Shown in pieces: positions 21,001 through 24,000 of a DNA stretch of 47,396 nt; position 1 is the stretch's first letter; each line of letters begins with the position of its first letter. Source of the DNA: a virus (Duplodnaviria > Heunggongvirae > Uroviricota > Caudoviricetes); IMG/VR virus record IMGVR_UViG_2684623171_000003; one strand, written 5' to 3'. The position numbers are program-made.

Positions 21001-24000
21001 CCGAAAAAACCAGAAATCAGGACGTGACGTAAGAGAGGCGGGCTGGACCAGCCTGTTTCAGGCGGTGGCTGAGCCCTTTTCCGGCGCCTGGCAGCAGGGC
21101 GTGAAAGCCGATCCTGAAGCCGTCCTCTCCTTTCATGCGGTGTTTGCATGTATTTCGCTGATATCCCAGGATATCGCCAAAATGCGGCTGCGTCTTATGC
21201 AGACGGATGCGCATGGGATACGCAGGGAAACGCGCCGGGGGGATATTGCCCGCCTCTGTCGTCGTCCCAACGCCCAGCAGAACCGCATCCAGTTTTTTGA
21301 ACTGTGGCTGAACGCCAAACTGCGTCATGGCAATACGGTGGTGCTGAAAATCCGTAATGCCCGGGGGCAGATCAAAGAACTGCGTATTCTGGACTGGAGC
21401 CGGGTTGAACCTCTGGTGGCGGATGACGGCGAGGTGTTCTACCGCATCACGCCGGACCGGAACTGCGGGATCACGGAGGCGGTGACGGTGCCTGCCCGGG
21501 AAGTGATCCACGACCGGTTTAACTGTTTTTTTCATCCGCTTATAGGATTGCCGCCGGTGTATGCCGCCGGGCTGGCGGCCACGCAGGGGCATCATATTCA
21601 GGAAAATTCGACGTCTTTTTTCAGAAATGGCGGCAGGCCGTCCGGGGTGATTGAGATCCCCGGCAGTATTACGGAAGAAAATGCGAAAAAACTGAAGAGC
21701 AACTGGGACAGCGGGTATACAGGCGAAAATGCGGGGAAAACGGCCATTCTGAGCAACGGGGCAAAATACAACCCCACGACGTTTTCACCGGTGGATGCGC
21801 AGACGGTGGAACAACTGAAGATGACCGCTGAAATTGTCTGTTCGGTGTTCCGTGTCCCGGCCTACAAGATTGGCGTGGGACAACCGCCTTCCAGTGACAA
21901 CGTGGAGGCGCTGGAGCAGCAGTATTATTCCCAGTGCCTGCAGACGCTGATTGAGTCCATTGAACTGTTACTGGATGAGGCGCTGGAAACGGGGGAAAAC
22001 GAGAGTACAGAATTTGATGTCACCACGCTGCTGAGAATGGACAGTGAGCGGCGCATGAAAACGCTGGGGGATGCGGTGAAAAATACGCTTCTCACGCCCA
22101 ATGAGGCCCGTAAACGGGAGAACCTGCCGCCCCTGGCCGGCGGTGATGCACTGTATCTTCAGCAGCAGAACTACAGTCTGGAGGCGCTGTCCCGTCGTGA
22201 TGCCCGTGAGGATCCGTTCGCGTCTGCCGGGAAAACAGTTTCATCACAGCTGCCTGACGGCGCATCTGACGGTAATAAGGCAATCAGTGAAACAGAGCAT
22301 GATGCGGTGAAAGCGATGTTCAGGGGGGATACTGAGAAAATGACGGAACGGGAACTGTCCATTATTCGTGCACTGGGAGAAGAATTTTCCACAGTGCTGG
22401 CGGATTTACAGCGCACATTTGAGGAGAAAATAGCCGCGCAGGCACAAACGTTTGAAGAAAAACTGGCTTCTCAGTCTGTGGTATTACAGAAGTGCGTGAC
22501 GGGTGATGATGTGCGTCCGATGCTTGAGCAGATGGTGAAAGAGGCAGTGAGCCATATTCCTGTTCCGCGCGACGGTCGTGACTACGATCCGGATGTTCTG
22601 CAGAAGGCGGTGAATGATGCGGTCGCGAAAATACCGGTACCGGCAGACGGTAAAAGTATCACTCCGGATGATGTGCATCCGATGCTTGAACAGATGGTGA
22701 AGGAGGCGGTAAGCCATATTCCTGTTCCGCGTGATGGTCGTGACTACGATCCGGATGTTCTGCAGAAGGCGGTGAATGATGCGGTCGCGAAAATACCGGT
22801 ACCGGCAGACGGTAAAAGTATCACTCCGGATGATGTGCATCCGATGCTTGAACAGATGGTGAAGGAGGCGGTAAGCCATATTCCTGTTCCGCGTGATGGT
22901 CGTGACTACGATCCGGATGTTCTGCAGAAGGCGGTTCTGGAGGCGGTGAGTGCCCTGCCGGCTCCGCAGGACGGGCGTGATGCCACGGCACTGGAAATAC
23001 TCCCCGCCATTGACGATCAAAAATCCTTTCCCCGGGGCTCGTATGCCACACACCAGGGTGGACTCTGGCGGGCGTATGAAAAAACGCACGGGATGCGGGG
23101 ATGGGAATGCCTGGTTGACGGGGTGGCGGATATCGACGTCAGCATGACGGATGAGCGGTTGTTCTCTGTGGTGATCCGGCAGAGCAGTGGCCAGTGTACG
23201 GAAAAAACATTTTCCCTGCCGGTGATGCTCTACCGCGGTGTGTTCAGAGCCGGTAAAACCTACCACCCCGGCGATACGGTGACGTGGGGGGGCTCGCTGT
23301 GGCACTGCAACAGTATGACCGGTGATAAACCCGGAGAAGCTCATTCATCAGCCTGGACCCTGGCTGCAAAACGTGGACGGGATGCAGGAGGCGGAAAATG
23401 ACGGCATTACTGACACTGGAAGAGATCAAGGCACATCTGCGTGTTGACCATGACGCGGATGATGACATGCTGATGGACAAGGTTCGTCAGGCTACCGCCG
23501 TGCTGCTGGCCTACATTCAGGGCAGCCGGGATAAAGTGATTCGTGAGGACGGTGAGCTGATCCCGGGCGAGGCATTAACCCGGATGAAGGGGGCTGCCAT
23601 GCGACTGACCGGGATGCTGTACCGGAATCCGGATCTTGCTGAGCGGGAAGACCTCGTGCAGGGGGAACTGCCGTTTTCTGTGTCCGTGCTGATTTACGAT
23701 TTGCGTTGTCCGACGGTGTTATGAGGAGGGAGGAATGGCAATATCTGCAGGTCGTCTGACACAGATGATAAGTGTTCTGAACCCGGTGTTAACCCGTAAT
23801 GCTGCCGGAGAAATGACGGAAGAATGGGTGTCATGCGGGAAAATTCATGCGGATATCCGTGGCAGGAGCAGCCGGGAGCGGATGCAGTCCGGTGCGGAAA
23901 TGGCGCAGGCGGAAATCCGCATCTGGGTGCGCGGTCAGTCCGGCCGGGAAATCACGGCAGCGTCACGACTTCATGTGCTGAGTGGTCCATGGCGTGACCG

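Follow-up and report, generated by a model that had tools for sequence, protein, structure and literature searches.

A portal gene with a repetitive extension in a lambdoid prophage of Escherichia coli O157:H7 as a probable fusion with a downstream accessory gene

The portal-X reading frame and its tandem repeat

The window analysed in this study is the whole 47,396-nucleotide (nt) stretch of the IMG/VR virus record IMGVR_UViG_2684623171_000003 (Caudoviricetes) and represents a lambdoid prophage from E. coli O157:H7. The window contains an uninterrupted open reading frame (ORF) in which a portal protein is followed by a long extension, referred to here as X, with an N-terminal helix, a repetitive shaft and a small terminal domain (Table 1). 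The original prediction regarded this ORF as one continuous gene for a portal with an intrinsic C-terminal appendage. The ORF is indeed continuous, but the appendage is not intrinsic to portals of this type, since X is a separate gene coupled to the portal gene in 54 of the 86 loci that we typed and in every outgroup examined. Taken as a whole, the evidence is best explained if the 807-amino-acid ORF is, as we consider quite probable, an in-frame fusion of ancestrally separate, translationally coupled portal and X genes. The feature is thus best described as a recurrent fusion of the portal with a downstream accessory gene.

The portal part matches Pfam PF04860 with 272.6 bits (cut-off 39.1, E = 6e-81). 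In phmmer comparisons, it aligned with the solved HK97 portal 8cez (E = 3.7e-20; query residues 45-400 on chain residues 53-409 of 424) and with the solved portal 9lbn (E = 9.3e-29); the homology spans clip, stem, wing and crown and ends at about residue 400-420. The N-terminal 454 residues resemble HK97-family portals (PF04860, TIGR01537) both in domain score and in belonging to a cluster of terminase, protease/capsid, portal and connector genes, and the N-terminal half can be taken, on sequence grounds, as a bona fide HK97-family portal. Since the Pfam domain ends at residue 382 and the HK97 homology at about 400-420, the protein carries about 385-425 extra amino acids. In contrast, HK97 gp3 (8cez) has 424 amino acids and stops soon past the crown; the window protein is about 385 residues longer, and the additional part is a different gene in most relatives.

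The nearly perfect 162-bp tandem repeat noted originally was readily recovered. Tandem Repeats Finder reports it at 22505-22935 with a period of 162, 2.7 copies, 97% matches and no indels, and its score of 813 is far beyond chance. The copies are in frame and start at 22505, 22667 and 22829 (codons 510, 564 and 618). Copies 1 and 2 differ at 7 of the 162 positions, six of these differences being synonymous and the other R513H. Copies 2 and 3 are identical, as predicted, over the 107 nt they have in common, after which copy 3 diverges into a sixth sub-unit ending at 22990. Each 54-amino-acid unit consists of two related sub-units, a helix followed by an IPVPxDGxD motif; the two motifs of 27 residues that had been proposed are thus related at the protein level, but they are about 29 and 25 residues long when measured between IPVP motifs. 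In many relatives the repeat copies differ at 20-39 of the 162 positions, whereas those of the window are near-identical, which points to recent duplication or gene conversion. The recent expansion proposed earlier agrees with this, in that the repeat has recently been homogenised.

The anticipated variation in copy number among related prophages was also found. X of E. coli relatives is 245, 353, 405/407 or 461 amino acids long, in 54-amino-acid steps, and this holds for alleles with five (G5, split) and six (G6, fused) G residues at the junction described below; across homologues, the shaft has 2 to about 27 units. Presumably, the shaft grows and shrinks in 54-amino-acid steps by unequal recombination or slippage between repeat copies. 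Collapse of the repeat during assembly, which had been named as a possible source of error, is unlikely because the finished chromosome of E. coli O157:H7 FRIK2455 contains the gene with 100% identity, the exact 807-amino-acid protein is present on three contigs, and further 807-amino-acid variants exist. Many drafts do break in the repeat, though: very many E. coli database entries are 'partial' proteins ending within it, evidence of breaks there in short-read assemblies. The repeat and the two G tracts described below are to be regarded as sources of assembly breaks and apparent frameshifts in genomes of Shiga toxin-producing E. coli.

Table 1. Features of the portal-X region of the window (nt positions of the whole stretch; aa, amino acids).
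Feature	Position	Strand	Remarks
Protease-capsid gene	18829-20766	+	Prohead protease Peptidase_S78 fused to HK97-type major capsid protein; Pfam Peptidase_S78 and Phage_capsid; 645 aa
Fused ORF, portal and gene X	20978-23401	+	807 aa, uninterrupted; WP_064261943.1 'phage portal protein'; phrog_2271 over full length
Portal part, HK97 family	20978-22339	+	aa 1-454; Pfam Phage_portal at aa 54-382 (nt 21137-22123)
G6 homopolymer, fusion point	22323-22328	+	G5 in split alleles; Shine-Dalgarno (SD)-like element ending 11 nt 5' of the X ATG
Gene X part	22340-23401	+	aa 455-807; phrog_1289; ATG at 22340 is its own start in split alleles (MTERELS...), overlapped by the portal TGA (ATGA)
N-terminal long helix of X	22340-22504	+	aa 455-509; AlphaFold2 (AF2) helix at X residues 3-51, predicted local distance difference test (pLDDT) 80-88; heptad-like hydrophobic spacing judged by eye
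Shaft	22505-22990	+	162-bp tandem repeat (22505-22935, 2.7 copies) and diverged sixth sub-unit; six helix + IPVPxDGxD sub-units in all
C-terminal beta domain	23012-23374	+	X residues 225-345; module like carbohydrate-binding module families 5/12 (CBM5/12), Pfam hit at aa 757-787 (nt 23246-23338)
G7 homopolymer in terminal domain	23286-23292	+	Codons W-G-G; second frameshift hotspot
gp6-like head-tail connector gene	23398-23724	+	PF05135, E = 7.8e-8; ATG overlaps fused-ORF stop (ATGA)

The junction and the fate of the fused allele

When the junction was aligned with that of the split phage Stx2a_WGPS2, which has two annotated genes here (454 and 407 amino acids), the presence of five G residues instead of the six in the window was the only frame-changing difference. 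Across the 86 typed loci, too, nothing but the tract length alters the frame. In the G5 frame, the portal ends with ...AMFRGILRK and a TGA stop that overlaps the ATG of X. In the G6 frame, the sequence reads ...AMFRGDTEK-MTERELS... and continues through X, the tract lying 25 nt 5' of the ancestral portal stop. One G added to a G5 tract would thus shift the last portal codons into the frame of X. The typed loci were drawn from IMG/VR, phage records and complete genomes, and the 54 split loci have G5 in several haplotypes, while the other 32 are fused and have G6 in two haplotypes. Split alleles are found in BP-4795, phage 1717 and most Shiga toxin (Stx) phage records, as well as in the Sakai prophage Sp10 (ECs_1974, 454 amino acids, and ECs_1975, 407 amino acids; NC_002695.2, 1952466-1955050; locus L101), and fused alleles in the isolated phage 2851 (859 amino acids) and YYZ-2008. 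All morphogenetic genes of Sp10 are intact and it is transferable to K-12 (PMC2669165). In the study by Asadulghani et al. (PMC2669165, Table 1), Sp10 was scored as having an intact portal function, and Sp6, Sp9 and Sp12 as having a defective one. The original prediction had allowed that the extension might turn out to be a separate gene revealed by a missed frameshift; it is a separate gene in most relatives, but no frameshift was missed, as the window allele itself has an extra G.

The outgroups were phages of Salmonella and Pantoea, three metagenomic phages (one with a collagen-like X and two that are more distant), and the named phages FSL SP-016 of Salmonella and RHph_X2_26 of Rhizobium. 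In all of them portal and X are separate genes, with a stop/start overlap of 4-14 nt except in RHph_X2_26, where the two are adjacent without overlap. In a distant phage (L092), X adjoins the connector gene, five genes from the portal. The portal gene of split relatives is of the HK97 type and encodes 447-500 amino acids, and its C-terminal tail is conserved across genera in the split frame only (RGILRK-stop in E. coli, RGFLTK-stop in Salmonella, and KGLLTHE-stop in Pantoea). This tail, together with the separate X gene of the outgroups, points to the split state as ancestral and to the fusion as a +1 G insertion. The G run is absent from the outgroup junctions, which have AGAGGA or AAAGGA about 12 nt 5' of the X ATG instead, and for this reason the G tract in E. 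coli doubles as the SD-like element of X.

A different possibility is that the tract serves as a programmed -1 ribosomal frameshift site, in which case split alleles would make the portal and a minor portal-X fusion, and G6 would hard-wire the fused product. Slippage of the P-site tRNA-Gly on G GGG G of G5 alleles would yield exactly RGDTEK, the A AAA TGA right before the stop is slippery as well, and X lies in the -1 frame, as is often the case for frameshift extensions of phage structural proteins. However, the canonical X XXY YYZ heptamer was not found at the junction, and the Salmonella, Pantoea and metagenomic junctions have no G run, yet portal and X overlap there. X also starts at an ATG of its own, preceded by an SD-like element, and its homologues mostly stand alone. 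The absence of a conserved slippery site in particular argues against a programmed frameshift product, and we consider it highly improbable. A single-base frameshift that alters ORF structure and is tolerated is familiar from another lambdoid accessory fibre gene, stf (orf401/orf314) of laboratory lambda; there the frameshift splits a gene, whereas here it fuses two, and both states are common in nature.

The fused allele is probably not a dead gene but an established lineage. The G6 alleles group into what is almost one clade, within which sequences differ at up to 39 of 770 nt, and one locus (L057) looks like a revertant. The X frame is intact in 26 of the 32 G6 loci. For the terminal domain, the ratio of non-synonymous to synonymous polymorphism (pN/pS) was 0.19 among fused (G6) and 0.17 among split (G5) alleles, and the X domain of the fused allele appears to be under purifying selection. 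The 859-amino-acid protein of the phage 2851 type has exact matches on as many as 806 contigs. Furthermore, a diverged lineage (P0264) carries an independent portal-X fusion of 1,237 amino acids with about 27 shaft units, present on four contigs; when its junction was inspected for a frameshift scar, none was visible.

The fused allele might nevertheless represent a defective, pseudogene-like state of a cryptic prophage, complemented by paralogous O157 head modules. O157 prophages have many defects and complement each other (PMC2669165), and the module is common: 1,247 of the 5,426 complete genomes of E. coli contain it, and the median number of matching places per genome is five. Further frameshifts in the same gene would fit as well: the G7 tract in the terminal domain is G6 in 4 of 92 loci (L003 from strain 86-24, L076, L079 and L080), X misses its normal C-terminus in all four, and the Prokaryotic Genome Annotation Pipeline flags the 86-24 copy as a frameshifted pseudogene. 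However, the fused lineage is old and diversified and mostly keeps the X frame intact, its pN/pS is the same as that of split alleles, and phage 2851, which was sequenced as a phage genome, has the fused allele. Moreover, reversion by slippage should be easy, yet only one candidate revertant was seen. Thus, we regard a defective allele as improbable. As many E. coli matches cover only query bases 1-1958, a swapped polymorphic C-terminal cassette was also considered and rejected, since one such locus, that of strain 86-24, has the same domain with DNA divergence and the G7-to-G6 frameshift.

It is also conceivable that the G5/G6 tract is a contingency (phase-variation) locus that rapidly switches between free and tethered X. 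Both tract lengths are common, the flanks of the G5 locus L057 are identical to those of G6 loci, and the second G tract in the same gene is variable too. However, tract switching was not seen repeatedly among near-identical sequences, L057 being the only G5 locus with G6-type flanks, and tracts of five to six G residues are short for high-frequency slippage. Since the G6 alleles are almost monophyletic, switching would be rare on the timescale of sequence divergence, and phase variation seems very unlikely to us.

Architecture and putative role of X

An exhaustive HMMER search for X retrieved 5,687 representative clusters (50% identity) at E <= 1e-3, of which 621 reach E <= 1e-30. The top 150 representatives have a median length of about 400 amino acids, and only two of them contain a portal domain. 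X therefore looks like an independent, large and uncharacterised family that is tightly linked to portal genes. All homologues are built alike, with a helix at the N-terminus, a shaft whose length varies, and a conserved C-terminal domain of about 130 amino acids, which ends with ...GDTVTWGGSxWxC...KPG...W.LA.KRGRDG. In the window protein, the terminal domain of about 140 residues, described from the outset as containing Trp and Cys, has five Trp and three Cys residues and matches phrog_16748. In the AF2 model, built with 48 sequences, the helix of 50 residues and the beta domain (pLDDT about 90) are both predicted with confidence. The terminal module of X is a small three-stranded beta fold that is superposable on chitin-binding domains. 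The Pfam CBM_5_12 (PF02839) score of the window protein, 20.5 bits, is under the cut-off of 26.2, that of a homologue (P0123) is over it at 29.8 bits, and precomputed PF02839 matches exist on many X homologues. The terminal domain is predicted to adopt a CBM5/12-like carbohydrate-binding fold.

Some homologues (P0357, P0128 and P0149) contain collagen-like Gly-X-Y triplets, which replace or follow the helix-loop shaft or form a tail past the terminal knob, and such triplets imply trimers; the window protein itself has no Gly-X-Y triplet runs. As a check for a disulfide, the Cys of GWEC and the Cys of WHC were compared across 119 sequences and showed no co-variation. When Protein Data Bank sequences were searched with the X-domain profile, isolated CBM modules were the only matches, and no solved structure has an X homologue beyond the CBM module; a search of NCBIfam with X gave nothing useful.

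Databases list X proteins that stand alone under the names 'phage portal protein' (phrog_1289, RefSeq) and 'phage gp6-like head-tail connector protein', although neither domain is present. These names in PHROGs and NCBI appear to have been carried over from fused forms or to be otherwise spurious. The name 'gp6-like head-tail connector' on homologues of 289 amino acids raised the possibility of an X-connector fusion, which was rejected as the sequences are plain stand-alone X. Some GenBank records label split alleles 'portal protein (pseudogene)'. The annotation needs to be corrected: thousands of stand-alone X proteins are misnamed, and split alleles are called pseudogenes although the split state seems ancestral and occurs in the transferable Sp10. 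In two distant metagenomic phages (L094, 5744-6274; L097, 4472-12292), a phrog_4603 gene (alpha-2,3-sialyltransferase / MptE-Maf-like) lies directly 3' of X, and L097 also has radical SAM/SPASM and BNR (sialidase-like) genes, which hints at a glycosylated fibre or virion in these phages.

The tight coupling of X to the portal gene and the fusions between them suggest that X is associated with the portal vertex, most likely as an accessory fibre whose synthesis keeps pace with that of the portal. As for its activity, the original prediction left room for a decoration or a DNA-interacting domain; the domain make-up seems to favour a glycan-binding fibre over DNA binding. Collagen-like variants, CBM knobs and variable length are the make-up of exposed phage fibres, and on this basis we tentatively suggest that free X may be a trimeric, glycan-binding neck or head-proximal (external) fibre. 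The fused allele would then be a tolerated variant, in which free X is probably still made from the retained SD-like tract and its ATG, and portal-tethered copies of X would be carried passively.

Two known kinds of fibre resemble X. The neck whiskers of T4, formed by fibritin (wac), are likewise elongated, with an N-terminal anchor, a segmented helical shaft with loops, and a small C-terminal domain, and the wac gene adjoins a neck or connector gene. However, no sequence or fold match between fibritin and X was found, the tip of X is CBM5/12-like whereas that of fibritin is a foldon, and a trimer of X is suggested by the collagen-like homologues only. The CBM5/12-tipped fibres of Agrobacterium phages 7-7-1 and Milano, and the chitin-binding domains of chitinases, share the small beta fold with the terminal module of X. 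Whereas the gene for X lies in the head module next to that for the portal, the proteins of 7-7-1 and Milano are tail or baseplate fibres and chitinases are enzymes.

Several points weigh against this picture of a tolerated fusion and an external fibre. Two independent and persistent fusions to the C-terminus of the portal are difficult to square with an external fibre. To our knowledge, the portal C-terminus is inside the capsid in all solved portals, and the similarity to the HK97 portal favours this topology for the window protein as well. The AF2 model of the shaft consists of alternating short helices and loops predicted with low confidence (pLDDT 50-60). That translation of the fused allele may also start internally, at Met455, is suggested solely by the retention of the SD-like tract and the ATG. 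Recombination among paralogous prophages could mimic constraint in the pN/pS of the fused lineage, and phage 2851 is only reportedly viable. Finally, our searches of the literature retrieved neither experiments nor proteomic data for X or the fused protein, nor any description of an X protein, a portal with a repeat, portal frameshifting, CBM5/12 portals, or portal-vertex fibres.

Alternatively, X may be an internal head protein docked on the portal crown, comparable to SPP1 gp7/MuF or to the portal barrel of P22, and the fused allele would be a natural portal-X complex made covalent. Such a fibre inside the capsid might be released or used in DNA ejection. The attachment point of X, the portal C-terminus, follows the region homologous to the HK97 portal crown, and the long helix of X opens right after the conserved helical tail of the portal. 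The ATGA or 8-14-nt overlaps imply co-translation of X with the portal, and portal-X fusions have arisen at least twice and persist. Given that the portal C-terminus is inside the capsid in solved portals, persistent fusions are easier to understand if X sits on the crown. On the other hand, collagen-like shafts and CBM5/12 knobs are otherwise known from external phage fibres, a range of 2 to about 27 shaft units is hard to fit to a fixed internal geometry, and X lies apart from the portal and beside the connector in L092.

P22 portals have a long helical segment past the crown, and so does the window protein. However, in relatives of P22 the barrel belongs to the portal gene itself, whereas the extension here is a separate gene in the split loci and the outgroups and carries repeats and a beta knob; the window protein does not appear to be an intrinsic extended portal of the P22-barrel kind. 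SPP1 gp7 and Mu F minor head proteins are like X in the position of their gene directly 3' of the portal gene (L092 being the exception), in occasional fusion, and in their modular, variable C-terminal part, and their family includes MuF polymorphic toxins (PMC5576092). What sets X apart from these proteins is its shaft, which is repetitive or collagen-like, and its CBM5/12-like knob, and neither the Phage_Mu_F domain nor gp7 homology was found in the window protein and 10 homologues. Because no such domain was found, X is unlikely to be a MuF/gp7 protein. An internal location of X is, in our judgement, possible but somewhat doubtful.

A more specific form of the internal location, in which X would belong to an unrecognised class of portal-bound internal virion proteins in HK97-like siphophages, seems to us rather unlikely. 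X would then be a thin fibre of variable length with a glycan- or peptidoglycan-binding tip, anchored to the crown with one copy per portal subunit, and would organise DNA or be threaded out ahead of it. If X is indeed bound to the crown inside the capsid, the fused alleles of the window, phage 2851 and P0264 would show that a covalent tether to the portal C-terminus is compatible with function. Whether X is an external fibre, as we tentatively prefer, or an internal one, the natural fused and split alleles in similar Stx-type phages provide a ready-made experiment on its location and role.

Genes around the fusion

The portal-X gene of the window is 92-97% identical to those of long-tailed Stx-converting phages of the genera Pankowvirus, Sawaravirus and Marienburgvirus. 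The genes of the module are arranged in the order of terminase small subunit, terminase large subunit, protease-major capsid fusion, a small ORF, portal-X ORF and gp6-like connector, and the order of portal, X and connector is kept in the Salmonella, Pantoea, metagenomic, Sakai Sp10 and some other relatives. The position of the protease-capsid fusion 5' of the portal is the reverse of the usual HK97 order of portal, protease and capsid; the Salmonella, Pantoea and metagenomic relatives have the same protease-capsid fusion and gene order as the window. The small ORF (20811-21032) would encode a protein of 73 amino acids, annotated as hypothetical (WP_001063099.1) in all related records, and overlaps the start of the portal gene by 55 nt in another frame. 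On the minus strand, an ORF of 286 codons (22484-23344) runs antisense across the repeat; it matches no family, is not annotated, and most likely exists simply because the repeated sequence lacks stop codons. A perfect 7-bp tandem repeat, four copies of TCAGACA, was detected by Tandem Repeats Finder at 33865-33892, in the prophage tail region.

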